From Acholeplasma sp. (GTDB lineage: Bacteria; Bacillota_I; Bacilli_A; Acholeplasmatales; UBA5453): a DNA stretch of 64,000 nucleotides. Each line of letters starts with the position of its first letter. Position 1 is the first letter of the stretch. This document shows positions 89 to 19,657 of the stretch, in pieces. The translations under genes and the position numbers were made by a program. A model generated the notes under the pieces. It saw only the letters and a program-made list of their open reading frames with translations, was not told the DNA's origin and made no database searches. The DNA lies in contig JAVESF010000003.1 of the NCBI GenBank assembly GCA_034006765.1, positions 34,218-98,217 on the forward strand, in the 5' to 3' direction.

Positions 89-1156
89 ATGGAAATTGTA
101 TTGAACAGATTGACAAAAGTATTTGTCGCGAAGAACAAGCAAGAAACCAGAGCGGTTGACAATTTAAATATTGTGATCCCATCTGGGAAGTTGGTTGGAT
201 TACTAGGGCCTTCAGGTTGTGGTAAAACAACGACACTTTTTATGATTGCAGGGCTTCACAAACCTACAGCAGGTAGAATTCTTTTTGGAACAGAAGATGT
301 TACAAAGTTAACTGCGGATAAAAGAGGCATTGGATTGGTATTCCAAAACTATGCACTATATCCTCATATGACTGTTAGACAAAACATCATGTTTCCACTA
401 GAAAACTTAAAGGTAGAGTATGAAGAAGCGGTAGCCAGAGTAACAGAAATGGCTAAACTAGTTGGTATTGAAGACCAATTAGACAAAAAACCATCTGAAC
501 TATCAGGTGGACAACAACAACGTGTTGCGATCGCTCGTGCGCTTGTTAAAAAACCAAGAGTGCTTCTGTTAGATGAACCACTATCAAACTTGGATGCTAG
601 ATTACGTCTTCAAACACGTGAAGAAATCAAACGTATTCAAAGAGAAACAGGTATTACAACCATTTTCGTTACACATGACCAAGAAGAAGCAATGAGTATT
701 TCTGATGAAATCGTGGTTATGGAAAAAGGTGTGGTTCAACAAAAAGATGAACCACAACAAGTGTATTACAATCCAACAAATTTATTTGTTGCAAAATTCT
801 TAGGAAGCCCAGCTATTAACGTAACGAGAGGCGAAATTAAAGACAACAAGCTTTATTTTGGCGGTAAGTTCTTCGTTAATAAGAAAGCTAAAGATGGCCT
901 TTATGATGTTGGGATGAGACCTGAAAACTTTAAAGTTGCAGAAACAGGTTCAAAAGTAGATGTCACTGATGTGGATATCATTGGTAGAGATACCATCATC
1001 CGCTTCAACTTAGGTGATCAACAAGTAAGAGCTTTGGTAGATTCTGAAACAGTGGAAGATATTAAAGAAATCAAATTAACGATTAAAGATGAAAAGATTT
1101 TATTATTCGACATTGAAACAGGAAAAGTTGTTTTAGACTCAAAAAAAGAAAGGTAA
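89..1156 (+). CDS. ABC transporter ATP-binding subunit, CUT1 sugar/glycerol-phosphate type (MalK/UgpC/MsmK-like) with C-terminal regulatory domain
   Basis: Walker A GPSGCGKTT, signature LSGGQQQRVAIARAL, Walker B VLLLDEPLS, H-loop VTHDQ. AAGGAG RBS 8 nt upstream of the ATG. Confidence 0.9.
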   Translation: MEIVLNRLTKVFVAKNKQETRAVDNLNIVIPSGKLVGLLGPSGCGKTTTLFMIAGLHKPTAGRILFGTEDVTKLTADKRGIGLVFQNYALYPHMTVRQNIMFPLENLKVEYEEAVARVTEMAKLVGIEDQLDKKPSELSGGQQQRVAIARALVKKPRVLLLDEPLSNLDARLRLQTREEIKRIQRETGITTIFVTHDQEEAMSISDEIVVMEKGVVQQKDEPQQVYYNPTNLFVAKFLGSPAINVTRGEIKDNKLYFGGKFFVNKKAKDGLYDVGMRPENFKVAETGSKVDVTDVDIIGRDTIIRFNLGDQQVRALVDSETVEDIKEIKLTIKDEKILLFDIETGKVVLDSKKER

Positions 1157-1163
1157 GGGTTTA

Positions 1164-2492
1164 ATGATGTTTAAGAAGATTACTCGTAACATTAAATCAT
1201 TCTTTTCAAAAGTAAACTGGTCCACTAGAAACGTATACTTAACCGTGAAACGTGCTATAGGGGGCGTATTTAGAAAATTTTGGTCGATCGTTACACAAGA
1301 AGAAAAACGCATCGAACGCAATCGAATGAAACTCGATTTTGTTCTAAAATATTTAAATCTTGATGGTAAGGACATCGATATTCAACTTGACTTGGACATT
1401 GCAGAAATTAGAAAAGATTTAGTTGAAAAGAAAAAAGCATTATCGGTTACTTACAAAAAAGACAAGAACCAAAGTGTTCTTAACGAATTAAACACGGTCA
1501 GTCGTGTGATCAAGTACTTACCTGATGACAACCGCACGATTAACAGAAAAGGCGACAGAAAAGTCGAAACCAATAAGTTCATTAAAGCGATGATTTACTT
1601 ATCACCTGCATTAATCCTATTGGCAGTATTTACTTTCTGGCCAATCATCAATACATTAAGATTATTGATTTATGTTGGATATACTGAATCAGATGGTTCT
1701 ATCCAAGGGTATACAATCTTTGGAAACTTTATTAAAGTTATCAGTCAAAGAGGCTTCATCAGACCTTCAGCAGGGACCTTCTCAAGTGCATTAATCAATA
1801 CATTATTGATGGCATTTATCTCAGTACCTATTTCAATCGTTGTTGCATTATTGATTGCAGCTGGATTGAACTCAATTAAAGGACTAAAAGGGTTTTTCCA
1901 AACCATATTCTTCTTACCTTATGTAACCAACACAATTGCGATTGCATTAGTATTTAAGTTTATGTTTAACGAAAACTTCGGTTTGATCAATACAATGTTA
2001 GGTTGGATTGGTATTGATAAGGTGAATTGGCTATCCACTAATGCCAACTATTGGGCAGTTATGGGTGTCATGGTTATCTATTCAGTATGGGATTCATTAG
2101 CGTTTAAAATTATGGTGTTCTTATCTGCAATTCAAGGTATTGACAAACAATACTACCAAGCGGCAGATATCGATGCAACGCCAAAATCCAAAGTATTTAG
2201 AAAGATTACAGTCCCTCTTATTTCACCAATGATATTTTACATCATGGTAACGTCAATTATCGGGGCATTAAAGGTTTACTCATCCGTAATCACATTGATT
2301 AATGAAGCGGGTGAAATCCGAGGTGCAACCTATAAGATGAAAACCATTGTTATGTACATTTATGAATACTTGAATACTAGAGCACCTGGTAACTTATCGT
2401 TAGCAGCTGCCTCATCAGTTGTACTATTTGGTATTATTCTACTGTTCACATTAGTACAAATGCAGGCAAGTAAGAAGAGAGTGCACTACTAA
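1164..2492 (+). CDS. ABC transporter permease (MalF/UgpA-like) with a roughly 140-aa hydrophilic N-terminal extension
   Basis: Multiple hydrophobic helices. EAA loop YYQAADIDATPKSKVFRKITVPLISP. Starts 8 nt after the ATPase stop. Confidence 0.8.
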   Translation: MMFKKITRNIKSFFSKVNWSTRNVYLTVKRAIGGVFRKFWSIVTQEEKRIERNRMKLDFVLKYLNLDGKDIDIQLDLDIAEIRKDLVEKKKALSVTYKKDKNQSVLNELNTVSRVIKYLPDDNRTINRKGDRKVETNKFIKAMIYLSPALILLAVFTFWPIINTLRLLIYVGYTESDGSIQGYTIFGNFIKVISQRGFIRPSAGTFSSALINTLLMAFISVPISIVVALLIAAGLNSIKGLKGFFQTIFFLPYVTNTIAIALVFKFMFNENFGLINTMLGWIGIDKVNWLSTNANYWAVMGVMVIYSVWDSLAFKIMVFLSAIQGIDKQYYQAADIDATPKSKVFRKITVPLISPMIFYIMVTSIIGALKVYSSVITLINEAGEIRGATYKMKTIVMYIYEYLNTRAPGNLSLAAASSVVLFGIILLFTLVQMQASKKRVHY

Positions 2493-3901
2493 TGGGGGCA
2501 ATTATGGAAAAGAAATATTTAAATAGATGGAAATTAACCGATAAATTTGTGTTAGCCGCCGATGCGATTGCAGTGATTTTATATTTGGCGTTCTTCATTA
2601 AGGCATTTATCGATATTCCAATACCTACAAAAGAAGAACTTGTAGATGTTAACTTTATCTTCAACGGTTTTCAAATGAGCATCCTTGCGATATTCGCAAT
2701 GATCGCCACACCATTACTAGTTATCGATTCAAAAACACACTTTAACAAAGTTGAATACGAAATCGATGCTTGGTATGGTGGCAATACCTTTGTTAAAGGA
2801 CTTATCTCATTGTTGTTACTAAACCCAGTGAGTGCAATTTTAAGATTTTACAACACACACAATGTGTTAAAGTTTGCTACAGGTCACAGTTACATTGAAG
2901 CGATCAAAAATATGGGTCGCTGGTTTAAACAAAAATTAGAAGCGTTTAAAAATAGAAAAAACAGTCCTGATCATGAAGGAGAAGCGACTGATGAAGAAGT
3001 TAGATTACGTAAAAAGATACGTACTCAAACCATCGGTATTGCTGGGAAATCCATCTTGCTTTATGGGTTAATTGGGATTGCAGCAGCATTCGTATTCTTA
3101 CCATTCTATTGGATGATTTTAACAGCTTTAAAGACGTTTGAAGAAACTCAATCGACTAATCCTTCATTCTTTGTTGCATTAAAAGACATGCAATGGGTTA
3201 ACTTTAAATATGTTTTAAATGAAATGGACTTCGGTTTATACATTTACAACACGTTATTGGTTGGGGTTATTTCAACGCTTGGTACAGTTGTAACGACTGT
3301 GTTTGCAGCTTTTGCTTTTTCTAGAATTGACTTTAAAGGTAGAGACACCTTATTCTCAATTTTATTAATGACCATGATGATTCCTGGTGAATTATACATC
3401 ATTACAAACTTCGTAACAGTTGCACAATTCGGATGGATTTCAAGTGCAGGAAATAAAGTATTCCTTGCGATGATTATTCCGTTTATGACAAGTGTATTTT
3501 ACATATTCTTCTTACGTCAAACATTTAAACAAATTCCAAACAGCTTATATCAAGCCGCACAGGTTGATGGCTGTAGCGATTTTAAATATTTGGTAAGGGT
3601 TATGTTACCAATTGCTGGACCTACCGTGTTCACAATTACCATTTTAAGTGTTATCGGTTCATGGAACGCCTTCATCTGGCCAAGATTAATGGCAAGTATG
3701 TTACCGAATAATAACGAAAGTTTTTATCTAATTTCAGTCGCACTGAATAAAGCTTCATTCATGGATCCAGAAGGTATGAGATTGATGTACAACCTTCAGA
3801 TCGCCGCCAGTGCACTGGTTACAATACCACTTTTAATCGTTTTCTTAGCTTTAAGAAAATATATTATTAGAGGCGTAGGAAGATCCGGTATTAAAGGATA
3901 A
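2492..3901 (+). CDS. ABC transporter permease (MalG/UgpE-like) with a roughly 190-aa N-terminal extension containing extra TM helices
   Basis: EAA loop LYQAAQVDGCSDFKYLVRVMLPIAGP. The ATG overlaps the upstream TAA (TAATG). The start could instead be the Met at 2504. Confidence 0.8.
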   Translation: MGAIMEKKYLNRWKLTDKFVLAADAIAVILYLAFFIKAFIDIPIPTKEELVDVNFIFNGFQMSILAIFAMIATPLLVIDSKTHFNKVEYEIDAWYGGNTFVKGLISLLLLNPVSAILRFYNTHNVLKFATGHSYIEAIKNMGRWFKQKLEAFKNRKNSPDHEGEATDEEVRLRKKIRTQTIGIAGKSILLYGLIGIAAAFVFLPFYWMILTALKTFEETQSTNPSFFVALKDMQWVNFKYVLNEMDFGLYIYNTLLVGVISTLGTVVTTVFAAFAFSRIDFKGRDTLFSILLMTMMIPGELYIITNFVTVAQFGWISSAGNKVFLAMIIPFMTSVFYIFFLRQTFKQIPNSLYQAAQVDGCSDFKYLVRVMLPIAGPTVFTITILSVIGSWNAFIWPRLMASMLPNNNESFYLISVALNKASFMDPEGMRLMYNLQIAASALVTIPLLIVFLALRKYIIRGVGRSGIKG

Positions 3902-3914
3902 TAGGAGGGTTTAA

Positions 3915-5963
3915 ATGAAAAAAATAGCTTCATTTTTGATTGCAGTCGTTGCAGTCATTACACTAGCTGCTTGTGCTAACGTTAGAGCAAGTGCGCCAGT
4001 GTTCGAAGGTATTCCTGAAGGTAAAACCATCACCATTACAGATGGAGATGTGTTTGATCCAAAAGCAGGAATTACTGCGAAAGATACAAAAGATAAAGAC
4101 CTAACAGCATCTATTATTGTTGAAGGGTTAGACTCAGACAAATTAGCGGGCGGTGTTTGGATCGGTGGTCCAGGTAACTACTCATATAAGATTTCAGTTA
4201 CTAATAGCGCTAAAATTACAACTGAAGAAAATATTACTTTGATTGTAAATGCTAAAGAAGGTCAAGAAGCAACACCACCAGTGATTGAAGGGGCATATTC
4301 AAACCAAGTGTATTACATTGGTTCAAACCCTTATGATCCACTAGAAGGTGTAACAGCTAGAGATACTATCGATGGCGACATCACTGGAGAACTTAAAGTA
4401 AAAGGCACACCTTATACTGCAAGACCTGGGGTTTCTAATTTCACCATTGAAGTAAAAAATAGTGCTGGTTATACCACTTCAATTGCAGTGGCATTAACAG
4501 TTAAGGCTAAGTATGAAATTCCTGAAGCTTTGACAACTGATCCAATTGAAATCACTTTCTGGCATTCAAACGGTGATTCAATCGAAGCAGAATTGAAAAA
4601 ATATGCTTTAGACTTCCAAACGTTATATCCAAATATAACCGTTAACGTCGTTAAGAAAGAACAAACTTATTCTGTATTAAAAGATACAGTGGTTAAGGCA
4701 GCTGGTACTAATAGCTTACCTAACTTGGTTCAATCTTACCCAGATCACGTTATGGAGTACTTATCATATAATGCACTAGTCAGCGTATCTCCTTATTATG
4801 CTCACCCTGTTCATGGTTATTCTACAACAGACGCTAAAGAAAGTTTTGCAGACATCATTGGTTCATACAGAACTGAAAATAGCCAATATACAAAAGATGG
4901 CGATTTCTATGCATTACCTTTTAATAAATCAACGGAAGTATTAGCGTATAATAAGACTGTATACGATATGTTAGTGGCAGCTGGTAAAGCACCTGCTGAA
5001 TTCCCATCAACATGGCAAGACATTATCGCTTTAGCACCAGCATATAGAGAAATTGCAGCTGGATACTTCAAGACCAACCAAACATTTGTAAATACCAACG
5101 GTTCACAAGCTCAAAAAGCTTTATTTACAGATGATAATATTGCCTTGATGACCGAAAAATTCGTACCATTCTCATATGACTCAACTGACAATGCATTCAT
5201 TACATTGACTAAACAATGGGGTGGCGAATATACAGGTATTGACGAAAGTAGAAATGGTGTTATTAAGTTTGATAATCCTCAAACTAGAAACATGTTACAA
5301 TTCTTCTACGACAATAAAGCAAGCATTACTGTACCAGGTAACTGGGGTGATTCATACAGCTATGCATCAGATATCTTCAAAAATGGATTCACATTCATTA
5401 CAATCGGTTCAACCGGTGGTATCAGATACAATGCGCCAATTCTAATTAACAATGAAGCAAACAACGTAAATGAGTATTTATTTGAAGTAGGCGTTACACC
5501 AATGCCATACAACAAGGAAATGCCTGAAAACTGGACAGCGATTCAACAAGGTACTAACGTATCTATCACATCAGCTGGTACAGAACAACAAAAACTAGCT
5601 TCATGGTATTTCTTAAAACACTTAACAAGCTACGATGTGCAATTAGACTTCTCAATGAATATCGGATATTCTCCAGTTAGAACTTCTGTCTATTCAGATC
5701 CAGCATTTATCCAATTTACAAAAGGTCTTGACAAAGAAGGTAAAGCTTTAAGAGGCGCGAACTATTTAATGAGCCAAGCAATCAATGCAGCAGCCATTCA
5801 AAAAGACGTACAATTCTTTGACCAAGCATTCGTAGGTTCATCTACATCAAGAGCCGCAGTCGGTATTGCGTTTAACCAAGTGATGTTGGCTACAAACCCA
5901 AATATCATTAACATTGCGATTCAACAAGCAGTAGATGAAGCTAAAAAGGTACTCGGTAACTAA
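3915..5963 (+). CDS. lipoprotein: two N-terminal bacterial Ig-like (DUF5011-like) domains fused to a family-1 extracellular solute-binding domain
   Basis: Signal peptide with lipobox TLAAC (Cys20). Two similar roughly 80-aa modules (DGDVFDPKAGITAKD and NPYDPLEGVTARDTIDGDIT). The SBP core begins at IEITFWHSNGDS. AGGAGG RBS. Confidence 0.8.
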   Translation: MKKIASFLIAVVAVITLAACANVRASAPVFEGIPEGKTITITDGDVFDPKAGITAKDTKDKDLTASIIVEGLDSDKLAGGVWIGGPGNYSYKISVTNSAKITTEENITLIVNAKEGQEATPPVIEGAYSNQVYYIGSNPYDPLEGVTARDTIDGDITGELKVKGTPYTARPGVSNFTIEVKNSAGYTTSIAVALTVKAKYEIPEALTTDPIEITFWHSNGDSIEAELKKYALDFQTLYPNITVNVVKKEQTYSVLKDTVVKAAGTNSLPNLVQSYPDHVMEYLSYNALVSVSPYYAHPVHGYSTTDAKESFADIIGSYRTENSQYTKDGDFYALPFNKSTEVLAYNKTVYDMLVAAGKAPAEFPSTWQDIIALAPAYREIAAGYFKTNQTFVNTNGSQAQKALFTDDNIALMTEKFVPFSYDSTDNAFITLTKQWGGEYTGIDESRNGVIKFDNPQTRNMLQFFYDNKASITVPGNWGDSYSYASDIFKNGFTFITIGSTGGIRYNAPILINNEANNVNEYLFEVGVTPMPYNKEMPENWTAIQQGTNVSITSAGTEQQKLASWYFLKHLTSYDVQLDFSMNIGYSPVRTSVYSDPAFIQFTKGLDKEGKALRGANYLMSQAINAAAIQKDVQFFDQAFVGSSTSRAAVGIAFNQVMLATNPNIINIAIQQAVDEAKKVLGN

Positions 5964-6010
5964 GGTTTTAATTATTGAATTTTCAATAAAGAAAATATAG
6001 GAGGAGAAAT

Positions 6011-9000
6011 ATGAAAATCGGATTCAAACGATTGACTATGGTATTAGCATTACTAAGCGTAGTATTGCTAGCCGCATGTGGTAAAACAGACACCACATTG
6101 AAAGATGCCGTTGCAGATTTAACAATCCAATACGCATCAGGAGACAGCGTTACATCTGTCACTAAGGATTTACCTACACTACCTTCAAAAGTAGGCGAAG
6201 TTACAATTACTTGGGTTTCAAGTAATACAGCAGTTGTATCAAATGCCGGAGTTGTTACAAGACCAGCAGCTGATACTAAGGTGAAACTTACTGCTACATT
6301 AACTTTTGATGGCAAATCAGAAACTAAAGATTTCGAATTCACAGTTAAAGCTGTTGAAGGACCATCTCAAGCAGAAAAAGATGCAGCAAAAGCTGCTTTA
6401 GAAGCTGTATATGCAGATACTATTGGCGATCTTGAATATGAAGTAACTGAAAACTTAGAATTAGTTACTACTGTTGCAGGTAATGCCGTAACATGGACTA
6501 CTGCAAATGCAGAATTAATCACTACTGCCGGTGTTGTTACAAGACCTGCATATAGCGTTAATGGTGGACAAACAGTTTTATTAACTGCTACAATTAACGT
6601 TAAAGGTGAAGAAGTAGTAGTTGAATTCTTTGCATTCGTTAAAGGCTTAGACAGAACTGTTGAAGAAATCTTAACAGCAGCTGTTAACCTAGGCGCAGCG
6701 TTCACTTCAGACATTGCAACTGACGGTATTACTTCTAATCAAACACTACAAACTTCAGTGAAATACGAAGAAACTACATACACAATCGTATGGTCATCTT
6801 CACATCCAGAAGTAATGGCAATTGATGGTAAAGTCACTAGACCTGCAATCGGAAACGATGACGTAATGGTTACAATGACTGCTACAATTACCCATGAAGG
6901 TGTTACAGTTACTAAAGATGTCGTATTCAAAGTACTTTCTTACAAACCAAGTAGAGTATTTGAAAACATCAATGATTTATATACTGGTGATGGAAGAGCT
7001 AAAGACGGCGAATATGTTAAAGTTAAAGGCGTTAAAGTATTAGGTAAGATCAATGATGGTATTTTCTTACATGACGGCGCTAACATCCTTTATGTATTTG
7101 ACAGAAGCAAAGTTATCTACAACACATTAGAAGTTGGTAAAGTATACGATGTTGAAGGTGAATTTGACATTTATTATAGTGCAGGACAACTTGCAAACTA
7201 TGCACCAAACTCATTAACTGCTGTAGAATCAACTGAAGTTGTTGCTGACTTAGCCGCAACTCCAATCGAATACGAAGCATTAATCGACGGATTAGCATTA
7301 CCTACAAATCCAAGTGAACTTCAAGTGTTCTATGAATACACTCGCTTCACAGCTAAAGTTATCGTAGATACTCAAGAAGGCGATACATCAAGCTATAAAT
7401 ACTGGTTAGTACCAGAAGATTATGCTGATACTAAAGTTATCAAGACTGTAGATAGTAAAAAAGCAATCGAATACTTAACTAAGTATGTAAGTAATGTTTA
7501 TTACCAATCTAATTCAGAAGCATTTGCAGAATTAAATGGTAAAGTTGTAACCATCGACTTCTTAATGTATGGATTCAGATCAGACAGATTTGTATGGTAT
7601 GGACTATTCTTTGACGATGTTACAGATATCGTAGTTGAATTTGAAAACGATGCAGCCGCAATGGCAGCAGCCAAAGCAGTTATTGAAACTTCAGTTCCTG
7701 CTGATATCGTTGATGCAACTACTTTAGATCTAATCAAATCAATCCATGGCACAACAGTTGCTTGGACATCAAATAACGAAGCAGTTATTAACTCTACAAC
7801 AGGTGTGGTTACACCAGTTGACGGTGTGTTAACTCCAGTTGAATTAACCGCTACTATTTCTATCGGAACAGAAACTGACGTTATAGTTAAAATTCCAGTG
7901 AATGTAGGCGAACTTCCTGTTATTACAGTTAAAGAAGCTTTAGAAACAGCAGCTAACGGATTAGTACGTTTCAATGCCACAGTATTTGCAACTGACACGC
8001 GTGGGAACTATTATGTATCTGATGGAACTAACGCTTTAACAGTACGTGTATCTACTTCATCAGAACTAAATACAACTTTAGCAGCTAACATAGGAAAAGA
8101 AGTAGAGTTTATCGGTTCTAGATCTGACTATAATGGTCTAAAACAAGTATCCCCTACAGGCGTTAAAGTTTTAGGTGCAGGTGATGCTATTGCTCCAGTA
8201 AATGCAGATGCGTTAGAATTATCAGCAGCTGGATTAATCGGATTACAATCAGCATTAGTTGAACTTAAAGGTATGAGTGTCACTTCAAGAACTACTACTC
8301 CAAGTAAAGATGCTACATACAATACTACTTCAATCATCTTAACTCAAGTTTCTTCTAGCAAAACTATCGAATTAAGATGGGATGACAGAGTTGTATTAAC
8401 AACTGAAGCTAAAGCTGAACTAGATAAATTGGTAGTTGGCGAAATTGTTGAAGTTGCAACAGTAGTTGGTTGGTATAATAACCCACAATTATTAGGATTG
8501 AATGTTCTAAAAGTTGTTGTTATTCCTCAAAATGATGCAGCAAAACTAGCGGCAGATGCAGCAGCAATTGAAGACATTACATTATCAGCTGCAGGTGCAA
8601 TCGAACTTCCTGCTGTTGGTGCAAATGGTTCAGCAATTGCTTATGCATTCAAAGATGCAGAAGGCACTAATAATTCATTAATCGACTTAACTACTAAAAC
8701 AGTTACAATGCCTCTAGAAGGTCAAGTTGTTGTCGTATTAGTTGCAACACTTACTTTAGGAGAAGAAGCAGCTGTTGATGTTGAAATCAATGTTACTTTA
8801 GGGACACCTGTTTCCTCAGGTTTTGCTACAGATTTATTCATCTCTGAGTACATCGAAGGATCATCTAGCAATAAAGCATTGGAAATCTACAATGGCACAG
8901 GTGCTACAGTTGATTTATCAGCATATAAACTTGCAATGTACAACAACGGTAAAACAGAACAATCAAATATTTTACAGTTGACTGGAACTCTAGCACATGG

Positions 9001-9322
9001 TGAAGTTATTGTCATCGTTAATGCTGGTGCAACAGCTGCATTTAAAGTTGATGGCGCTATTGAACACACTATTACATATTTTAATGGCGATGACGCAATT
9101 GTTCTACTTAAGAATGATGAAATCATTGATTTAATTGGTGTTGTTGGGGTTGACCCAGGTACTTCATGGCCAGTTGGAACAGGCGCTACTGCAGAATTTA
9201 CACTTGTAAGAAATGCAGCAGTTACAAGTCCAAATAAGACTTTTACTGAATCTGAATGGGATGTCCATCCAGTTGATACAGCAACTTTCATTGGTTCTCA
9301 TACAATGACTCCTGCTGCTTAA
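6011..9322 (+). CDS. large surface lipoprotein: five Ig-like repeats, two pairs of YhcR-like OB folds and a C-terminal lamin-tail domain (LTD), with no recognisable catalytic domain
   Basis: Lipobox LLAAC (Cys23). Repeated motif TW(T/V)SSN..(V/I)...G(V)VTRPA...V.LTAT. OB-like segments GEYVKVKGVKVLGKINDGIFLHDG and VRFNATVFATDTRGNYYVSDGTNALTV. LTD segment LFISEYIEGSSSNKALEIYNGTGATVDLSAYKL. AGGAGG RBS. Confidence 0.7.
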   Translation: MKIGFKRLTMVLALLSVVLLAACGKTDTTLKDAVADLTIQYASGDSVTSVTKDLPTLPSKVGEVTITWVSSNTAVVSNAGVVTRPAADTKVKLTATLTFDGKSETKDFEFTVKAVEGPSQAEKDAAKAALEAVYADTIGDLEYEVTENLELVTTVAGNAVTWTTANAELITTAGVVTRPAYSVNGGQTVLLTATINVKGEEVVVEFFAFVKGLDRTVEEILTAAVNLGAAFTSDIATDGITSNQTLQTSVKYEETTYTIVWSSSHPEVMAIDGKVTRPAIGNDDVMVTMTATITHEGVTVTKDVVFKVLSYKPSRVFENINDLYTGDGRAKDGEYVKVKGVKVLGKINDGIFLHDGANILYVFDRSKVIYNTLEVGKVYDVEGEFDIYYSAGQLANYAPNSLTAVESTEVVADLAATPIEYEALIDGLALPTNPSELQVFYEYTRFTAKVIVDTQEGDTSSYKYWLVPEDYADTKVIKTVDSKKAIEYLTKYVSNVYYQSNSEAFAELNGKVVTIDFLMYGFRSDRFVWYGLFFDDVTDIVVEFENDAAAMAAAKAVIETSVPADIVDATTLDLIKSIHGTTVAWTSNNEAVINSTTGVVTPVDGVLTPVELTATISIGTETDVIVKIPVNVGELPVITVKEALETAANGLVRFNATVFATDTRGNYYVSDGTNALTVRVSTSSELNTTLAANIGKEVEFIGSRSDYNGLKQVSPTGVKVLGAGDAIAPVNADALELSAAGLIGLQSALVELKGMSVTSRTTTPSKDATYNTTSIILTQVSSSKTIELRWDDRVVLTTEAKAELDKLVVGEIVEVATVVGWYNNPQLLGLNVLKVVVIPQNDAAKLAADAAAIEDITLSAAGAIELPAVGANGSAIAYAFKDAEGTNNSLIDLTTKTVTMPLEGQVVVVLVATLTLGEEAAVDVEINVTLGTPVSSGFATDLFISEYIEGSSSNKALEIYNGTGATVDLSAYKLAMYNNGKTEQSNILQLTGTLAHGEVIVIVNAGATAAFKVDGAIEHTITYFNGDDAIVLLKNDEIIDLIGVVGVDPGTSWPVGTGATAEFTLVRNAAVTSPNKTFTESEWDVHPVDTATFIGSHTMTPAA
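6116..6937 (+). repeat. three tandem protein-level Ig-like repeats inside CDS 6011..9322; further copies at about 7649..7909 and 8534..8800
   Basis: ITWVSSNTAVVSNAGVVTRPAADTKVKLTATL, VTWTTANAELITTAGVVTRPAYSVNGGQTVLLTATI, IVWSSSHPEVMAIDGKVTRPAIGNDDVMVTMTATI, and later VAWTSNNEAVINSTTGVVTPVDGVLTPVELTATI. Boundaries are approximate. Confidence 0.7.
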
Positions 9323-9336
9323 TAGATTAATCAATT

Positions 9337-9368
9337 AAAGGACGTATTCGAAAGGATACGTCCTTTTT
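9337..9368 (+). terminator. rho-independent terminator after the 1103-aa lipoprotein gene
   Basis: Perfect stem GGACGTAT (9340-9347) with ATACGTCC (9356-9363), flanked by AAA/TTT, then TTTTT. Confidence 0.85.
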
Positions 9369-9393
9369 GTATTATCTTTCCCATCTTTTTGGT

Positions 9394-9425
9394 TATGTAT
9401 TATTAATACATATTTGTGGTATAAT
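9394..9425 (+). promoter_or_regulatory. candidate promoter of the nuclease gene, with a 19-bp perfect palindrome at the -35 position
   Basis: Palindrome TATGTATTA-T-TAATACATA at 9394-9412. Extended -10 TGgTATAAT at 9417-9425. No good -35 hexamer. Confidence 0.5.
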
Positions 9426-9461
9426 AGTAATGCACTATTTTTTTAGTAGAGGAGATTTATT

Positions 9462-11093
9462 ATGAAAAAACTATTACCAATGCTCGTATTAATGTTAGTT
9501 TTTCTAGCAGGATGCGAACAAAAAAAGGTAGAGACTGTTCTACCTAATTTAACAAACAAAACCATTGCTGAGATAGAGATGACTTTGGCATCCTCTAAAA
9601 TCGCATATGAAATTGTTGAAATAAGTGACTTTGACAAAGCGGATGGCACGTTTGTCAAGTATGAAACAATGAATGCTGGTGACGTTATCGAAAAAACAGA
9701 TAGCGTTAAAGTTGTAGTCAATGTACTACGTTTACCTGATTTGACTGGCAAATCTGAAAGTGAAATCATCGAATTATTCGACAAGGTCGGACTAGAAGTC
9801 TCTGTTATTTTTGATGAAGACAACAATGATTTTCCTGACAGAACGTGGTCAGGGTATGATGGGTTAAGTGTAGGAGACAAAATTTCTACACTAGATACTG
9901 ATGTCGTTACAGTGAAACTAGCAATTAACTCTTACGTAATGTTACCAGATTTAGTAGGCTTGAATATCCATCAAATTAAAATTGAACTCGAAAACATGTT
10001 ATTACTAGCTAAATTTGAGTATATTTTAGATGATACAAAAGAAGCTGATCTTTTCCAAGACTATAAAGATTTCGAAATTGGCGAAGGTGTTGAACCTGGT
10101 TCAACCATCACTGTTAAAGTTTATACAAACAGTTTCTTAGAAGAAGAGGAATCCTTGTTTATTTCTAAGTTCTATGACAATGAGGATAATAACCAAGCAA
10201 TTGAAATTTATAACCCAACCGCATCTACCATAAATTTGGCCGACTATACGATTGCTGTATTGCAAAATGGTGCGTTAGTACCTACTTATACAATTGCTTT
10301 AGATGGACAATTAGAGGCGAATGGTACTTATGTCATTGCCAACCCTCAAGGGAACAGAGATGTACTTAAAATCGCAGATTTATCGAGTACACAGCTGAAC
10401 TTTGATGGCAACGATGTGATTCAGTTGAGATATAAGAATGACACATATATTGATATTATAAACATAATGGGGACTAGACTTGTAACACTGACTAATGAAG
10501 TCTATGTTCGCCAACCACAAATAACATCAGGAAGTCGCAGTTTTGACTTCAAAGCGTGGGATGAATATGTAGGTACCTATGTAACACCGTTTGGTACTCA
10601 TCCGTTTGCTAGCCCAGACTCATTCGAGATAGATATGAGCTTTGCTGCAAGACCATTTGGCGATCCACTAGGTGGATTCGCTAAAGTTACGTTAGTCACA
10701 ACAACCGATGGTGATACAGCAGAATTTACACCAGGCTTTACAAGTAATGCACGTATTCGTTTCTTAGGGGTTGATACACCAGAAACGCACCCAGCTGTTC
10801 AACCAATGGGTTTAGAAGCTAAAGCATTTACAAGAAATCTTTTGGAAAACGCAACTGAGATATACTTACAAAATGATCCAGGCAACGCTTATGTAGATAC
10901 TTATGGTCGTCACATTGGTCTTATATGGGTAGATGGACAACTTGTAAACTACTTAATCGTTAAGAATGGATTTTCAGACAACTTTTTAAACGCTCAATCA
11001 AGCCTAGTTTATAACAACAGATACTTATACCGTTGGTTCCAAGATGCGGAACAATATGCGATTGACAATAATTTGGGTGTTCATAGTCTATAA
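9462..11093 (+). CDS. extracellular nuclease lipoprotein: three PASTA-like repeats, LTD and a staphylococcal (thermo)nuclease domain
   Basis: Lipobox FLAGC (Cys18). Three repeats starting LPNLTNKT, LPDLTGKS and LPDLVGLN. LTD LFISKFYDNEDNNQAIEIYNPTASTINLADYTI. SNase residues conserved: DGDT, R-x4-DTPE (RFLGVDTPE) and YGR. Confidence 0.85.
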   Translation: MKKLLPMLVLMLVFLAGCEQKKVETVLPNLTNKTIAEIEMTLASSKIAYEIVEISDFDKADGTFVKYETMNAGDVIEKTDSVKVVVNVLRLPDLTGKSESEIIELFDKVGLEVSVIFDEDNNDFPDRTWSGYDGLSVGDKISTLDTDVVTVKLAINSYVMLPDLVGLNIHQIKIELENMLLLAKFEYILDDTKEADLFQDYKDFEIGEGVEPGSTITVKVYTNSFLEEEESLFISKFYDNEDNNQAIEIYNPTASTINLADYTIAVLQNGALVPTYTIALDGQLEANGTYVIANPQGNRDVLKIADLSSTQLNFDGNDVIQLRYKNDTYIDIINIMGTRLVTLTNEVYVRQPQITSGSRSFDFKAWDEYVGTYVTPFGTHPFASPDSFEIDMSFAARPFGDPLGGFAKVTLVTTTDGDTAEFTPGFTSNARIRFLGVDTPETHPAVQPMGLEAKAFTRNLLENATEIYLQNDPGNAYVDTYGRHIGLIWVDGQLVNYLIVKNGFSDNFLNAQSSLVYNNRYLYRWFQDAEQYAIDNNLGVHSL

Positions 11094-11878
11094 TGAGAGT
11101 CGTCTATAGAATACTATTTGCCCTATTCATGGTTGTTTTATTTTGGTTCAGTTTTAATACGGCGAATAATATGGTAACCGAAAAATACATTAAAGAACGC
11201 GTAGAACCAAATTTAAGAGGGGAAAACCCGGATTATCTTTACTTCTATGGGTCCATACCCCACTACAATCATAGAGACCCCCTTTACGCTTTAGAAACAG
11301 AGCAGTATAAAGTTAGGTTTTATGAGTTATTAGTCACAAATGAAAAAGGAACTAAATTGGATGAATATGTCTATGTTTTGATTCACAAAAAAGATGTGTT
11401 CGTACCTGATCAAAATTATCGCATTCATATTGGCGAAAAAGAAGAATATGTTTATTACCCTCAAGGGCAAATCTATGACCTTTTGGTTATGTTAAATGAA
11501 GAACAGGTCTACATCCCTAGAACAGTCATTGAACAATATTTAGACCAAGAATGGAAATTGGTAGACAGCGAGGATGAAACCGTATTTAGTTTCACCCCAA
11601 CGCTTCAAAAGCCTTTTAATCTAAAGACAATGGTTGAAGATTATGTAGAAGCAAACAACAAACTACCATATAACAAGCTTAATGATCAAAACGTCTATTT
11701 ATATGAGCAACCAGATTATTCCCCGTACTATTTGATCTATTCAGTAGCGCTTAGTATATTTGGGATTATATTTGCAGGATCACTATTAGCCTTATACCTT
11801 CACGACAAGCGAAAAGGCAAAAGACAAATGATGGACTATGAATCGATTTTAAACGAACGAAAAAAAGTAAAATTGTAA
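11093..11878 (+). CDS. hypothetical membrane protein with N- and C-terminal TM helices, translationally coupled to the nuclease gene
   Basis: The ATG overlaps the nuclease TAA (TAATG). Hydrophobic segments ILFALFMVVLFWFSF and YLIYSVALSIFGIIFAGSLLALYL, with a basic tail. No recognisable motif. Confidence 0.6.
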   Translation: MRVVYRILFALFMVVLFWFSFNTANNMVTEKYIKERVEPNLRGENPDYLYFYGSIPHYNHRDPLYALETEQYKVRFYELLVTNEKGTKLDEYVYVLIHKKDVFVPDQNYRIHIGEKEEYVYYPQGQIYDLLVMLNEEQVYIPRTVIEQYLDQEWKLVDSEDETVFSFTPTLQKPFNLKTMVEDYVEANNKLPYNKLNDQNVYLYEQPDYSPYYLIYSVALSIFGIIFAGSLLALYLHDKRKGKRQMMDYESILNERKKVKL

Positions 11879-11881
11879 TCA

Positions 11882-11912
11882 AAAAGCACACCTTTTTCAG
11901 GTGTGCTTTTTT
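11882..11912. terminator. bidirectional rho-independent terminator between convergent genes
   Basis: Stem GCACACC (11886-11892) with GGTGTGC (11900-11906). A-run on one side and T-run on the other. Confidence 0.85.
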
Positions 11913-13716: not shown

Positions 13717-13724
13717 AATAGCTC

Positions 13725-14126
13725 CTAATGTATGAGTTGATAGATTAGATAAGTAATAGTAGAAGTTGAAAAGCCCAAGAAAGAGCCCCAAGCTAAGTCA
13801 ATTAGGGTGATGCTTAATGGCCAATTTTTCATTGTAGCTAAATTTGTTAAGTCATAGGTGGCATAAGTGATCAATCCAAAGAATGCACCTAGCAACATGA
13901 CTTTGCCTAATGAATTCGCATCAACCCCAGGTTGAATGACAAACACAACAAGTCCTGCGATGAACAGTAAATAAAATAGGATGGCTGCAGTCCAGTTTAC
14001 ATCAGGTTTTAGTAGCGTTCCAATTTGATCTTGATAGAGTTTCTTTGCAATGAGACCCAACCATATTAAATCAACCACTAAAAACACCACAAAAGCGATC
14101 CCATAAAGTTTTAAAAATGTGCCCAT
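13725..14126 (-). CDS. small integral membrane protein, DUF2177-like
   Basis: Four hydrophobic helices. N-terminus GTFLKLYGIAFVVFLVVDLIWLGLIAKKLYQ. ATG at 14126 preceded by AAGGAGG. Confidence 0.6.
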   Translation of the reverse strand: MGTFLKLYGIAFVVFLVVDLIWLGLIAKKLYQDQIGTLLKPDVNWTAAILFYLLFIAGLVVFVIQPGVDANSLGKVMLLGAFFGLITYATYDLTNLATMKNWPLSITLIDLAWGSFLGFSTSTITYLIYQLIH

Positions 14127-15684: not shown

Positions 15685-15843
15685 ACTATAATGGTCACCT
15701 TCAACTATTGAGGAATTAACGTATGATTTCAGAAAAAGGAGCATATTCATATAGATGTTCTAAAAAAATATCCAAGATAAACTAGTCTAGAAGTTATCGT
15801 TTAGCCGTTGAAACGTAGGAATAATCAATGACTGATTACCATG

Positions 15844-15876: not shown

Positions 15877-15887
15877 AACATAGTTGC

Positions 15888-18712: not shown

Positions 18713-19657
18713 ATGAATTATCAACCATTATTAACCAAGATTATTAACTACAAAACAATCATTATTCACAGGCATTCAAAACCGGATTTTGATGCGATTG
18801 GATCTCAAGTAGGGTTAAAGGAAATCATTTTGGAAAACTTTCCAAATAAGCAAGTCTATGTGGTCGGAGACTCAAACAAATTTGACAAAGACAACGAGAT
18901 GCAAGTGATTGAAGATGCGATTTATGAGAAGGCACTTGTATTCATTTTAGATGTCGCAGTTAGTCATATGGTGTCTGATGACAGATATAAAATGGCTAAA
19001 GAGGTTATTGTCATTGACCACCATAAGAACGATTGTAACATTGAAGAAGCTTCCCTAGTTATTAGTGATCCGAGTTATTCAGCTTGTGCAGAGTTAATTA
19101 CAGACATGGCACTAGAGTTAAACTTAAAAATCAACGAAAAAGCTGCCTCTTATCTCTATGCTGGCATAGTGACAGATACAGGTAGGTTTCAATGGATGCA
19201 TGAACCTGAACGTGTGTTTTTGGTTGCCTCCATTCTTACAAGCTTAGGGGCAAAGACAACAGAACTTTATGATTTTTTATATGTGGATTCTTTGGAAAGT
19301 AAGAAGCTAAAGACTTTTTTCCAAAGTAGATTTATTTATGAAGATGGCGTTGCCTTCTTAAAAAATGATCAAGATGTTTTTGAACAATTCGACATCGACG
19401 TATTTTCAGTTTCTAGAGGGATGGTTAATTTAGCAGCAGGGATTGAAGAAATCAAAATATGGTTAAACTTTACCTATGATAAAGACAAAGACATTATTTT
19501 AGGTGAATTTAGATCAAGAGGTGTTAAAATCGTTGATATCGCTAAGAAATATGGTGGCGGTGGGCACGAACAAGCTTGTGGTGCAAGCCTCAAGACTTGG
19601 GATGAAGTAGAACAAGTCATTCATGACTATAAACAATTACTAAAGGAGAATAAATAG
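18713..19657 (+). CDS. DHH/DHHA1 phosphoesterase, NrnA-like (nanoRNase/pAp phosphatase or pApA/c-di-AMP phosphodiesterase), paralog 1
   Basis: HRHSKPDFDAIGS, VIDHHKN (DHH), GGGHEQACGA (DHHA1). Confidence 0.85.
   Translation: MNYQPLLTKIINYKTIIIHRHSKPDFDAIGSQVGLKEIILENFPNKQVYVVGDSNKFDKDNEMQVIEDAIYEKALVFILDVAVSHMVSDDRYKMAKEVIVIDHHKNDCNIEEASLVISDPSYSACAELITDMALELNLKINEKAASYLYAGIVTDTGRFQWMHEPERVFLVASILTSLGAKTTELYDFLYVDSLESKKLKTFFQSRFIYEDGVAFLKNDQDVFEQFDIDVFSVSRGMVNLAAGIEEIKIWLNFTYDKDKDIILGEFRSRGVKIVDIAKKYGGGGHEQACGASLKTWDEVEQVIHDYKQLLKENK

Follow-up and report, generated by a model that had tools for sequence, protein, structure and literature searches.

Does a surface nuclease encoded beside an ABC importer supply that importer with fragments of extracellular nucleic acid? 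The question is raised by seven genes of an Acholeplasma sp., found in a contig stretch of 64,000 nucleotides (hereafter the window). The initial annotation had read them as a candidate capture-digest-import module, in which a split version of the nuclease YhcR is wired to a CUT1 importer. Herein, we weigh this reading and its alternatives against domain models, predicted structures, and related genomes.

Gene layout and transcription units

The seven open reading frames, g1 to g7, are all located on the + strand and are separated, in order, by 7, −1, 13, 47, 139, and −1 nt. The coordinates and the description of co-directional genes with small gaps or overlaps were thus borne out. An intrinsic terminator, with a 13-bp stem, a GAAA loop, and a subsequent U-tract, lies 3' of g5 (9337..9377, + strand), and the folding z-score of the g5-g6 gap was −3.4. 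It is followed by a putative extended −10 promoter of g6-g7 (TGgTATAAT, 9417..9425, + strand), which was matched to the consensus by eye, and by the RBS AGAGGAG. An equivalent hairpin and T-run, of unrelated sequence, stood at this position in 11 of 11 relatives with gene order A (see below). These sequence features indicate that g1-g5 and g6-g7 are two transcription units with a predicted terminator and promoter between them, so co-expression of nuclease and importer is not obligatory. Downstream, a bidirectional terminator (11881..11912), recognized by eye as AAAAAGCACACC-TTTTTCA-GGTGTGCTTTTTT, separates g7 from a convergent FakA/DegV-like gene. The terminator and promoter of the g5-g6 gap had been missed by the initial annotation, as had the PASTA repeats of g6, the patchy distribution of the g5 lamin-tail domain (LTD), and a pair of NrnA-like genes.

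Surface lipoproteins with OB-fold, LTD, and nuclease domains

The g5 gene (6011..9322, + strand) encodes a surface lipoprotein of 1103 aa with the lipobox LAAC. Four aBig_2 repeats (Pfam) alternate with two beta-rich OB-fold modules (~315-545 and 640-840), and the C-terminus carries an LTD (940-1044; Pfam, E = 1e-14). As initially proposed, the protein carries an LTD and no catalytic domain was found in it with Pfam or NCBIfam. Pfam gave no OB-fold match in g5 itself; the proposed OB folds are supported by the AlphaFold (AF2) model (pLDDT 81.7), for which Foldseek returned RPA70 DBD-A/B with ssDNA, the HIN tandem-OB with dsDNA, and LEF-3 at a probability of ~1.0, and by Pfam BOF matches in homologues, which correspond to g5 residues 635-705. 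The LTD was present in 15 of 30 g5 homologues, and its absence from the other half indicates that it is dispensable there.

The nuclease lipoprotein g6 (9462..11093, + strand; 543 aa; lipobox LAGC) consists of about three PASTA repeats (8-225), a second LTD (230-333; Pfam, E = 1e-11), and a staphylococcal nuclease (SNase) domain (~405-540; Pfam, E = 1e-11). The PASTA region of the NCBIfam PknB model aligned to residues 8-220. The two LTDs are homologous, as had been claimed, with 32% identity (E = 1e-18), and both matched the N-terminal LTD region of the NCBIfam ExeM model (E = 3e-32 for g5 and 4e-18 for g6), covering only positions ~23-175 of its 884. In the alignment with S. aureus nuclease, D21, R35, D40, T41, E43, and R87 were all matched in g6 (DGDT, RFLGVDTPE, and YGR), which agrees with the key residues originally noted. 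The catalytic and Ca2+ residues were invariant or nearly so in the family alignment of 18 homologues. Judged by these residues, the predicted SNase active site is intact.

The stop of g6 overlaps the start of g7 (11093..11878, + strand) in an ATGA, indicating translational coupling. The g7 membrane protein has transmembrane segments at the N- and C-terminus and an ectodomain of ~190 aa. Neither Pfam nor the PDB yielded a relative of g7, its family showed no invariant residue, and only 28 matching clusters were obtained among 1.8 billion representatives. In 50 of the 52 loci with sufficient downstream sequence, g7 followed the nuclease gene.

The importer and the predicted ligand site of its binding protein

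The ATPase g1 (89..1156, + strand; 355 aa) is of the UgpC/MalK type (Pfam ABC_tran, E = 4.5e-38). Its top NCBIfam model was UgpC, at 339 bits against a model cutoff of 432 bits, and homologues with 65-90% identity were found in every linked locus. Two CUT1 permeases follow. In g2 (1164..2492, + strand; 442 aa; top NCBIfam model UgpA), BPD_transp_1 spans residues 225-435 behind an N-terminal extension of ~140 aa, and most homologues align only from residue ~110-141. The start of g3 (2492..3901, + strand; 469 aa) overlaps the stop of g2; BPD_transp_1 spans residues 270-462, and the top models were GlcU, MalG, and UgpE. The solute-binding protein (SBP) g4 (3915..5963, + strand) is a lipoprotein (lipobox LAAC) with two Ig-like domains (~28-197; Bact_surface_Ig-like) and a CUT1 cluster-D core (~205-682; SBP_bac_8, E = 1e-25). 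Pfam and NCBIfam thus agree with the MalK/UgpC-type ATPase, the two permeases, and the Ig-fused SBP first assigned. The public annotation of the SBP reads 'glycerol-3-phosphate transport system substrate-binding protein'.

When the g4 family profile was compared with the PDB, UgpB ranked first (E = 1e-20), the UpG-binding protein 7c0f second (E = 1e-15), and sugar binders lower; the 7c0x entries were confirmed as the UpG binder by their titles. A phosphate-binding tetrad of two Tyr and two Ser has been reported to be specific to UgpB, GPC, and UpG binders (PMC12718374). Its equivalents in g4 are the invariant Y252, S339, and Y585, together with S499, which was assigned by a less direct alignment. 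The residues mutated in the UpG binder mapped onto g4 as Y56 to Y252, F79 to Y275, N81 to D277, S127 to S339, and Q274 to Q545, and the contacts Y224, T240, and Y246 fell in a stretch that did not align. The motifs PFNKS (around S339) and QGTN (around Q545) were identical in g4 and the Thermus thermophilus UpG binder, and neither was found in the UgpBs or sugar binders compared. Importantly, the mapped contact residues were invariant across 38 nuclease-linked SBPs, some of which were just ~30% identical overall. The site signature suggests a phosphodiester/dinucleotide type of ligand, which we take as the candidate class.

Other comparisons of g4 returned sugar binders as well. Foldseek on the AF2 model (pLDDT 90.3) retrieved phosphoester and sugar binders alike, all at TM 0.76-0.83. 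Single-sequence queries returned the sugar binders 6rjy and 9xf5 on top for residues 200-400, and sugar binders only for residues 470-620. The Tyr at position 252 is also present in the sugar binder 9xf5 and that at 585 in 1elj, and R589 corresponds to the sugar-hydroxyl Arg of TMBP and MalE3.

The top models raise the alternative of an ordinary Ugp-type importer of glycerol-3-phosphate (G3P) or glycerophosphodiesters, with the adjacent nuclease belonging to a general organic-phosphate scavenging island with no relay of substrate. In NCBIfam and the PDB, Ugp components are indeed the best matches of the ATPase, the g2 permease, and the SBP, the public annotation of the SBP names glycerol-3-phosphate, and a Na/Pi-PhoU transporter and a response regulator adjoin one distantly related locus, L071. 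The UpG binder is also reportedly able to bind glycerophosphodiesters, according to the 2021 FEBS J study. However, every Ugp score was far under the curated cutoff (53 bits against 411 for g4), the Trp clamp of G3P binders is apparently missing, and PFNKS and QGTN fit the UpG binder rather than UgpB. Moreover, no phosphate transporter or regulator was found within the window, the module showed no gene for a glycerophosphodiesterase, and the genes that accompany the importer invariably encode nucleases and nucleic-acid binders. We regard this alternative as rather improbable.

Conservation of the gene neighbourhood

Synteny had been set beforehand as a check on the link between nuclease and importer. 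The nuclease, g7, and the four ABC genes occurred together in all 21 informative genomes, defined as those with at least 9 kb of flank on both sides, and g5 in 20 of the 21. Two circularly permuted gene orders were found, order A in 15 loci and order B in 29, and in order B the gap between g7 and the ATPase gene was mostly <60 nt. The distant Izemoplasma and Liberiplasma loci retained the ABC genes, the SBP, an SNase, the large aBig_2 protein (carrying LTDs in L071), and a further SNase. The observed linkage between nuclease and importer is far beyond chance, and its survival through rearrangement of the gene order argues for a functional tie. The proposal that the nuclease is wired to the importer thus holds as conserved linkage. 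It does not hold as a single seven-gene operon, considering the terminator and promoter in the g5-g6 gap and the detachment of the nuclease unit from the importer in one genome (L014).

Two predicted cytoplasmic NrnA-like DHH/DHHA1 phosphoesterases, with no signal peptide on either, are encoded 6.8 kb from the cluster in the window (18713..19657 and 19659..20606, both + strand; NCBIfam NrnA, 231 and 251 bits), and the first is 48% identical to the copy in L071. A tandem NrnA pair followed g7 immediately in 10 loci and lay ≤7.6 kb from the nuclease gene in 5 more. Overall, the pair was linked in at least 20 loci, and the second copy showed the same linkage as the first. The tandem genes Mbov_0327/0328 of M. 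bovis encode proteins with nanoRNase and cyclic-dinucleotide PDE activity, and pairs of the NrnA type also act in the housekeeping turnover of c-di-AMP and nanoRNA (PMC7373297). Judged by gene linkage, the pair probably belongs to the system as a downstream partner that would convert short oligonucleotides to NMPs.

These observations also bear on a reading in which the main roles of the nuclease, g7, and g5 are not nutritional but lie in clearing of eDNA matrix or NET-like traps, cytotoxicity, or competition, while the ABC genes encode an unrelated neighbouring sugar importer. Mycoplasma SNase lipoproteins do act in NET evasion and cytotoxicity (PMC9740415), g6-g7 is set off from the importer by the terminator and lies detached from it in L014, and g4 is structurally close to sugar binders. 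But linkage in all 21 informative genomes, across a circular permutation, is difficult to account for unless the genes are functionally tied, and many carriers are free-living sediment bacteria without a host. Together with the phosphoester-type signature of the SBP site and the NrnA linkage, this makes the non-nutritional reading very unlikely.

Proposed mechanism

We consider it probable that the cluster serves nutritional scavenging of extracellular nucleic acid, by means of two adjacent units and a nearby cytoplasmic finishing step. The capture-digest-import reading is supported, and both the synteny and the SBP contact residues strengthen it. In the first step, g5 would hold DNA or RNA at the membrane surface via its two OB-fold modules and LTD, as suggested by their folds, with the aBig_2 repeats as spacers. 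Next, g6, on a PASTA stalk and with its own LTD, would cut the polymer by a Ca2+-dependent, staphylococcal-type nuclease activity. Nucleases of the SNase class yield 3'-phosphorylated mono-, di-, and short oligonucleotides. The g7 protein may be an obligate membrane partner of g6, possibly for anchoring or control. Based on its binding-site residues and the synteny, g4 would then bind a small phosphodiester-containing product, for which dinucleotides, very short oligonucleotides, and nucleotides are the likeliest candidates, and pass it to the g2/g3 permeases, with power supplied by g1. Finally, the two cytoplasmic NrnA-like enzymes may turn the imported fragments into mononucleotides, as their gene linkage suggests. 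A point against this import step is that the products of SNases bear 3'-phosphates, whereas the sole solved precedent holds an unphosphorylated 3'-5' dinucleotide. The literature favours the scavenging reading: Izemoplasmatales with DNA-degradation loci were identified as DNA degraders by stable-isotope probing (PMC8289736), and a comparable locus of H. nucleasis is induced by DNA and RNA (PMC10470597).

Scavenging of nucleic acid could also end in a different import step, in which unlinked surface nucleotidases remove the phosphates and the ABC system takes up nucleosides, nucleobases, or deoxyribose. Import of nucleosides or nucleobases is how Wasmund et al. read the Izemoplasmatales loci, arguing that membranes are impermeable to nucleotides (PMC8289736), and R589 of g4 could hold a ribose. 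However, g4 has the full phosphate tetrad and shares PFNKS and QGTN with the UpG binder, the module lacks a nucleotidase gene, and the linked NrnA-type enzymes need phosphodiester substrates. The ABC nucleoside binders known to us are of the BMP/PnrA family, of CUT2 rather than CUT1 type, which also counts against this route. We judge it unlikely beside the favoured import of phosphodiester-containing fragments.

Comparison with known systems

Loci of this kind and the bind-digest-import concept have already been described in related bacteria, and a dinucleotide-binding CUT1 SBP has already been solved; the novelty implied initially was overstated (PMC8289736, PMC4045577, PMC3585158). Putative loci for DNA degradation in Ca. 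Izemoplasmatales (Wasmund et al. 2021, Nat Microbiol, PMC8289736) likewise contain a CUT1-type ABC importer with an SBP, secreted SNase-type nucleases, a large (~1000 aa) lamin-tail/nucleic-acid-binding protein, and NrnA-type 3'-5' nucleases. L071 reproduces the published 1049-aa protein, with three aBig_2 and two LTDs, and its neighbours, and g5 and g4 are homologous to L071 proteins. In contrast to the two or three shorter SNases without g7 of the Izemoplasmatales type, the window has one PASTA-LTD-SNase protein with g7; its SBP is longer by two Ig domains, the cluster is not flanked by a phosphate transporter or regulator, and the NrnA pair is displaced. The hosts also differ: that of the window is a wall-less Paracholeplasma of the Acholeplasmataceae, and those of the published loci are marine Izemoplasmatales.

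The mycoplasma SNase/ABC 'nucleotide transporter operon' (mhp379, MAG_5030-5070, MBOVPG45_0307-0311, MGA_0676/MslA, and MPN133-136) is similar by gene type: one conserved cluster encodes an SNase lipoprotein of the cell surface, a second lipoprotein that resembles an SBP, and an ABC importer of the sugar/Ugp type. Publications on this operon spell out the bind-digest-import model, with a putative transported substrate, and assign DNA binding to the lipoprotein MslA; its homologues in M. bovis (MBOVPG45_0311) and M. agalactiae (P80, MAG_5030) adjoin the SNase gene and are modelled as SBPs (PMC4045577, PMC3585158). The short SBPs of the distant loci gave weak matches, with E-values as low as 5e-10, to the 'P68 family surface lipoprotein' model of mycoplasmas. 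The giant OB/LTD lipoprotein, the PASTA stalk, and g7 are features of the window, none of which is reported for the mycoplasma operon.

Bacillus subtilis YhcR is a wall-anchored, sugar-nonspecific nuclease with surface OB-fold domains and a staphylococcal-type nuclease domain. Its one polypeptide chain also contains a 5'-nucleotidase/metallophosphatase domain, bears an LPXTG anchor, and lacks an LTD. In the window, the modules are on two lipoproteins, without a nucleotidase domain, and the LTDs are ExeM-like. The term 'split YhcR' is kept only as an analogy, based on generic OB and SNase domains and on no YhcR-specific feature beyond these. ExeM of Shewanella, an extracellular nuclease for growth on DNA, shares its N-terminal LTD region with g5 and g6; for catalysis it has an endonuclease/exonuclease/phosphatase-type domain instead of an SNase.

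For three of the proteins, namely the ATPase, a permease, and the SBP, the top curated models were those of the UgpBAEC importers for G3P and glycerophosphodiesters (E. coli, M. tuberculosis, and Phaeobacter), whose phosphate-binding Tyr/Ser tetrad and hinge Gly are kept in g4. The differences are the scores far under the equivalog cutoffs, the apparently missing Trp188/Trp191 glycerol clamp, PFNKS and QGTN in g4 where UgpB has PFNSS and IGGA, and genomic partners that are nucleases rather than glycerophosphodiesterases.

The gene of the Thermus thermophilus dinucleotide SBP (U3GBP) has, to our knowledge, no nuclease context. The protein itself (PDB 7C0F series; Chandravanshi et al. 2021, FEBS J) has a CUT1 cluster-D fold like that of g4 (TM ~0.78-0.81), and its positions Y56, F79, N81, S127, Q274, and the TGY Tyr all have counterparts in g4. 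Overall identity is just ~18%, and g4 differs in that it is a lipoprotein, has a larger core, and carries two Ig domains at its N-terminus. What is new here is sequence evidence that points to an importer taking small nucleotide fragments, not sugars.

Gene content and domain architecture of the locus

Seven plus-strand genes, g1 to g7, were found exactly at the coordinates proposed in the initial annotation, separated in order by 7, -1, 13, 47, 139, and -1 nt. HMM searches identified g1 (89-1156) as an ABC ATPase, with UgpC as the best curated model, and g2 (1164-2492) and g3 (2492-3901) as binding-protein-dependent permeases, for which the best models were UgpA and GlcU/MalG/UgpE, respectively. 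The g4 product (3915-5963) carries an SBP_bac_8 solute-binding protein (SBP) domain after two Ig-like domains, g5 (6011-9322) encodes a lamin-tail domain (LTD) in addition to four aBig_2 repeats, and g6 (9462-11093) encodes an LTD and a staphylococcal-nuclease (SNase, PF00565) domain. Lipoprotein signal peptides were present at the start of g4, g5, and g6, with the lipoboxes LAAC, LAAC, and LAGC, respectively. The ABC, permease, SBP, LTD, and SNase assignments made earlier were thus all confirmed by HMM, and only g7 (11093-11878) had no family match in these searches. The closest named relatives were Acholeplasma (Paracholeplasma) morum, with identities of 89% for the SBP and 72% for g5, and P. 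vituli, with 57-90%; Paracholeplasma is a member of the Acholeplasmataceae.

Both permeases carry long N-terminal extensions that precede the conserved core. That of g2 (residues 1-140, window 1164-1580) was found only in Paracholeplasma and two further loci (L039 and L043). That of g3 (residues 1-190, window 2492-3060) was found in all loci with a PASTA/LTD-SNase-type nuclease (L001-L058), and was missing from the distant loci with a short SBP. An Rfam scan of the whole window revealed no riboswitch and no other RNA family.

The nuclease and the importer remain linked through a permutation of gene order

To examine the neighbourhood in related genomes, an alignment of g6 homologues was used as the query against one genome per GTDB species, and 80 loci were collected with 10-kb flanks, all ORFs of which were searched with the seven window proteins. 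A full-length g6 homologue was present in 58 of the 80 loci, and 21 of those had at least 9 kb on both sides and formed the informative set. All 21 contained at least three ABC genes on the strand of the nuclease, so that the association of nuclease and transporter suspected from the window alone holds across genomes. Homologues of g7 were likewise found in 21/21 and those of g5 in 20/21, the exception being a Bacilli MAG (L056) with g5 fragments only. In that locus the ABC genes are intact, and the nuclease and the g5 homologue are both split into several short ORFs (10057-11350 and 20222-21149), which may reflect pseudogenisation or assembly errors.

Two gene orders were observed. In order A, shared by 15 loci including the window and P. 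vituli, all from Acholeplasmataceae/Acholeplasmatales, the ATPase, two permeases, SBP, and g5 precede the nuclease and g7. In order B, seen in 29 loci that belong for the most part to Izemoplasmatales and other Mycoplasmatota, the nuclease and g7 come first and are followed by the ATPase, two permeases, SBP, and g5. Maintenance of the linkage through this circular permutation is strong evidence for a functional tie. Distant loci (Izimaplasma HR2, Izemoplasma, and Liberiplasma) have an ATPase, two permeases, a shorter SBP, an SNase, a large aBig_2 protein, and another SNase; in one of them (L071) the large aBig_2 protein has two LTDs. The one clear detachment was in a Mariniplasma MAG (L014), where the nuclease unit occurs without an importer on the contig. 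There, a 909-aa ORF (59-2788 of that locus), PAS-GGDEF-HD-GYP-like by inspection, precedes the nuclease-g7-NrnA unit in place of g5 and the ABC genes.

The initial annotation had grouped the seven genes, with their tiny gaps or overlaps, into one candidate module; a single seven-gene operon was rejected. The 139-nt gap between g5 and g6 contains, on the plus strand, an intrinsic terminator (9337-9377; 13-bp stem, GAAA loop, and U-tract) and an extended -10 element, TGgTATAAT (9417-9425), the predicted promoter for g6-g7, as well as a ribosome-binding site. A hairpin with a T-run follows the g5 homologue in 11/11 order-A loci examined, although the sequences are unrelated. The terminator and promoter thus split g1-g5 from g6-g7, which are exactly the blocks that trade positions between the two gene orders. 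Where the nuclease unit comes first (order B), it adjoins the ATPase gene with gaps of mostly <60 nt, indicating that co-transcription of the nuclease unit and the importer is likely there. A bidirectional terminator after g7 ends the module. Upstream of g1, where the window offers 88 nt, an imperfect hairpin with a T-run (19-50) may terminate transcription of a gene further upstream, in which case the unit would begin with g1.

The nuclease lipoprotein and its membrane partner

When g6 was aligned to S. aureus nuclease, the Ca2+ ligands D21, D40, and T41 and the catalytic residues R35, E43, and R87 were all matched, the g6 motifs DGDT, RFLGVDTPE, and YGR being the equivalents of the active-site residues. 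These residues were invariant or nearly so in 18 homologues. The alignment and the homologues both bear out the earlier statement that the key residues are complete, and g6 is predicted to be an active Ca2+-dependent nuclease on the cell surface.

The N-terminal 225 residues of g6 contain about three PASTA repeats (~26-225, window 9537-10136), which the initial annotation had missed. PASTA domains are usually tied to peptidoglycan sensing in PBPs and PknB kinases, and here they occur in the nuclease lipoprotein of a wall-less bacterium. They probably serve as a stalk or bind another ligand. The LTDs of g5 and g6 are homologous, as had been proposed by eye (32% identity, E 1e-18), and each is similar to the LTD at the N-terminus of ExeM, an extracellular nuclease.

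An exhaustive HMMER search recovered g7 homologues in 28 clusters only. Profile searches against PDB and Pfam returned only noise for g7 (reverse gyrase, E 0.012, and scattered DUFs). The g7 search also found a 2999-aa protein (P0370) with 14 repeats matching g7 residues 79-115 (E 4e-17); these repeats may represent a motif shared with the g7 ectodomain or a compositional artefact.

The large lipoprotein g5 carries OB folds as its conserved core

The initial annotation had described g5 as having YhcR-like OB folds without a catalytic domain. In g5 itself, Pfam gave no OB match. A confident AlphaFold model, for which 30 homologues were used (mean pLDDT 81.7), contained beta-rich modules at ~315-545 and ~640-840, set among the aBig_2 repeats. 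In the PDB, Foldseek matched the model at a probability of ~1.0 to the tandem OB folds of RPA70 with ssDNA (1jmc, 1fgu, and 4gop), to HIN tandem-OB domains with dsDNA (5z7d, 4jbm, and 4lnq), and to LEF-3, an ssDNA-binding protein. In addition, several g5 homologues had Pfam OB matches (BOF and tRNA_anti-codon), of which BOF corresponds to g5 residues 635-705. BLASTP found no similarity between the two OB modules (E 0.45), and searching the PDB with the sequence of the second module gave no match, so an internal duplication was rejected. Since the modules have no detectable sequence similarity, either mutual or to PDB entries, the OB call rests on the fold search and the homologue Pfam matches. 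At the level of the fold the OB assignment therefore stands, and "YhcR-like" is retained as an analogy only. No catalytic domain was found anywhere along the protein, as had been stated.

Of 30 full-length homologues, only 15 have the C-terminal LTD of g5 (residues 940-1044, window 8828-9142). It is missing from the g5 homologues of P. morum and P. vituli, the closest relatives, their Pfam scans showing aBig_2 repeats only, and larger homologues (1300-1800 aa) have two LTDs. Considering this distribution, the OB modules and not the LTD are the conserved core of g5.

The SBP binding site partly resembles that of a dinucleotide binder

The SBP family is well conserved, with a mean column identity of 56% over 30 sequences. 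The best 120 homologues were all at least 41% identical, and the named taxa among them were Acholeplasmataceae, Izemoplasmatales, and other Mycoplasmatota/Bacillota MAGs, with one labelled Lachnospiraceae. When the family profile was compared with solved structures, UgpB-type glycerol-3-phosphate (G3P) binders ranked first (E ~1e-20) and a 406-aa Thermus thermophilus protein, U3GBP, second (E ~1e-15), ahead of sugar binders. The entry title of the latter describes a dinucleotide-binding ABC protein with endogenously bound uridylyl-3'-5'-phospho-guanosine (UpG). Foldseek was rejected as a substrate discriminator for g4, because sugar and phosphoester binders scored alike (all matches TM 0.76-0.83).

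According to a 2025 study (PMC12718374), the phosphate is held by a tetrad of two Tyr and two Ser whose strict conservation extends over UgpB, the glycerophosphocholine binder of M. tuberculosis, and the UpG binder of Thermus, but not over glucose binders. The study also describes a Trp clamp as being peculiar to proteins that bind G3P. In HMMER alignments, the tetrad (Tyr64, Ser143, Ser266, and Tyr342 in Phaeobacter UgpB) corresponds to g4 Y252, S339, and Y585 and, less directly, S499, and the hinge Gly to G546. All four positions were present in 37-38 of 38 nuclease-linked SBPs. Control sugar binders had 0 or 1 tetrad positions each, among positions that could be examined: Gly or Asn occupied position 339, and Trp, Gln, or Gly position 585, but 1elj has Tyr at 585 and the sugar binder 9xf5 has Tyr at 252, as in g4. 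The Arg that contacts sugar hydroxyls in TMBP and MalE3 also has a counterpart in g4, R589.

The mutations of the 7c0x series, which mark the contact residues of the UpG binder, allowed a closer comparison. Y56, F79, N81, S127, and Q274 align to g4 Y252, Y275, D277, S339, and Q545, so that five of the eight contacts fall on identical or similar invariant residues; the other three (Y224, T240, and Y246) lie in an unaligned stretch, within which the spacing of g4 S499/Y505 equals that of T240/Y246. S127/S339 is embedded in an identical PFNKS motif, which in UgpB is PFNSS, and Q274/Q545 in an identical QGTN motif, which is IGGA in UgpB and LGGW in TMBP and MalE3. As for the G3P clamp, which holds the glycerol moiety (Trp188/Trp191, E. 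coli Trp169/Trp172), HMMER left the g4 region unaligned, and inspection of its stretch YDSTDNAF showed no Trp where the spacing would place one. The NCBIfam UgpB model scored g4 at 53 bits against a cutoff of 411. Y252, YPDH, K338-S339-T340, S499-T500, Y505, Q545-G546, N548, and GYxPxR were kept in 35-38 of the 38 nuclease-linked SBPs, some of which are only ~30% identical overall.

These residues form the strongest argument short of experiment, not a proof, that the g4 ligand would contain a phosphodiester or phosphate. Because of the genes that accompany the SBP, the ligand is probably a nucleic-acid fragment.

NrnA-type genes and a proposed uptake pathway

Two further plus-strand genes (18713-19657 and 19659-20606) encode cytoplasmic DHH/DHHA1 proteins without signal peptides, both matching the model for NrnA, a bifunctional oligoribonuclease/pAp phosphatase. 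In 10 loci such a tandem pair directly follows g7, in another 5 it is found no more than 7.6 kb from the nuclease, and the distant loci have it behind their last SNase. In the window ~6.8 kb separates g7 from the pair. This interval is occupied by a FakA/DegV-like gene, a gene for a small membrane protein, and two ORFs that putatively encode a photolyase and a pyruvate phosphate dikinase. The first of these is a 617-aa ORF on the minus strand (11938-13791) with a DAK2/YloV (FakA-like) N-terminal half and a DegV (FakB-like) C-terminal half, in which case the kinase and binding subunits of the fatty-acid kinase system would be combined in one polypeptide.

NrnA enzymes are described as converting oligonucleotides of 2-5 nt to mononucleotides. 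The equivalent tandem pair of M. bovis shows both nanoRNase and cyclic-dinucleotide phosphodiesterase activity, and its loss is rescued by NMPs (PMC7373297). The pair in the window might thus process imported fragments in the cytoplasm, a suggestion that is kept soft because such enzymes also have housekeeping roles. As a lead only, MG190 and MPN140 may be NrnA genes that accompany the M. genitalium and M. pneumoniae operons (MG185-190 and MPN133-140).

In the scheme that we propose, observation covers which genes are present, the completeness of the active site, the folds, and the persistence of the linkage; every activity, and above all the imported substrate, is what we infer. Extracellular nucleic acid would be captured by g5 and cut by g6 together with its obligate membrane partner g7. 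Small phosphodiester-containing products would then be bound by g4 and imported through g1-g3, and the NrnA pair would complete their breakdown in the cytoplasm. That the locus serves the use of extracellular nucleic acid appears highly probable to us; the entire chain, including import of nucleotides or oligonucleotides, we favour with less assurance. A broader suggestion is tentative, and we would not yet bet on it: g1-g4 and their relatives across the Mollicutes lineage, plausibly including the ABC transporter beside mycoplasma surface nucleases, may form a dedicated importer of dinucleotides or short oligonucleotides, fed by an OB/LTD capture lipoprotein and a tethered SNase and drained by NrnA-type enzymes. 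If so, a physiological explanation would for the first time exist for the uptake of nucleic-acid fragments as nutrients with their phosphates still in place. In the textbook view, nucleotides have to lose their phosphates outside the cell before they can be taken up.

Comparison with known systems

The substrate of the mycoplasma transporter beside the surface nuclease has been guessed at for almost twenty years and, to our knowledge, never shown. Here, the contact motifs of the one solved dinucleotide-binding SBP recur wherever the SBP accompanies the nuclease, and nano-oligonucleotidases accompany the same genes. Were the binding of nucleotide fragments true, it would define how wall-less bacteria, free-living sediment DNA degraders and pathogens alike, feed on nucleic acids, and would name the SBP, the nuclease, and the capture protein as surface-exposed targets.

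In B. subtilis YhcR, OB folds, SNase, and a 5'-nucleotidase domain form one LPXTG-anchored polypeptide, whereas here the OB and SNase modules are on separate lipoproteins, in which neither a metallophosphatase/5'-nucleotidase domain nor an LPXTG motif was found.

Closer counterparts are the "putative DNA-degradation loci" that Wasmund et al. (2021, PMC8289736) reported from Izemoplasmatales MAGs. In these, ABC transporters and phosphate transporters occur together with several extracellular nucleases, with 3'-5' nucleases and phosphohydrolases, and with a protein of 1049 aa that has lamin-tail and nucleic-acid-binding domains. Our locus L071 has a 1049-aa ORF with the architecture and neighbours of that published locus. 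Like these loci, the window has a nuclease beside an ABC importer and SBP (g6 being 139 nt downstream of g1-g5), a large LTD/nucleic-acid-binding protein (g5 being homologous to the 1049-aa protein of L071), and NrnA-type genes, although its pair is 6.8 kb off and not adjoining. In the Izemoplasma locus L071, which has dnaX and recR ahead of it, the NrnA pair is followed (15763-20126) by a fusion of a Na/Pi cotransporter with PhoU and by a response regulator of the OmpR type. The latter two proteins, used as tblastn queries, had no match in the 64-kb window; in the published loci the phosphate transporter and regulator are an accessory feature and not a universal one.

A comparable "nucleic acid-degradation locus" of Hujiaoplasma nucleasis is induced by DNA and RNA (PMC10470597). 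In mycoplasmas, discussion of an SNase lipoprotein encoded next to an ABC importer and its SBP-like lipoprotein goes back to mhp379, the SNase/ABC genes are co-transcribed in M. agalactiae, and a model in which MslA binds, the nuclease digests, and the ABC transporter imports is in print (PMC3585158, PMC4045577, PMC12115388, PMC9740415); DNA binding by MslA is reported in a citing paper (PMC4045577). The likeness of the window to the mycoplasma SNase/ABC "nucleotide transporter operon" is one of gene content, namely an SNase lipoprotein, an SBP-like lipoprotein, and three ABC genes.

Since these loci and the mycoplasma model already exist, the bind-digest-import concept is not new, the window adds nothing to it conceptually, and it represents the Paracholeplasma/Acholeplasmataceae version of a known locus type. 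What is added is the breadth of the linkage and the evidence from permuted order, the terminator, the NrnA association in Acholeplasmataceae, and the match of the SBP binding site to a dinucleotide binder. Compared with the known loci, the window is set apart by a nuclease of PASTA-LTD-SNase architecture, by g7, by the fusion of its SBP to Ig domains, and by its organisation in two units.
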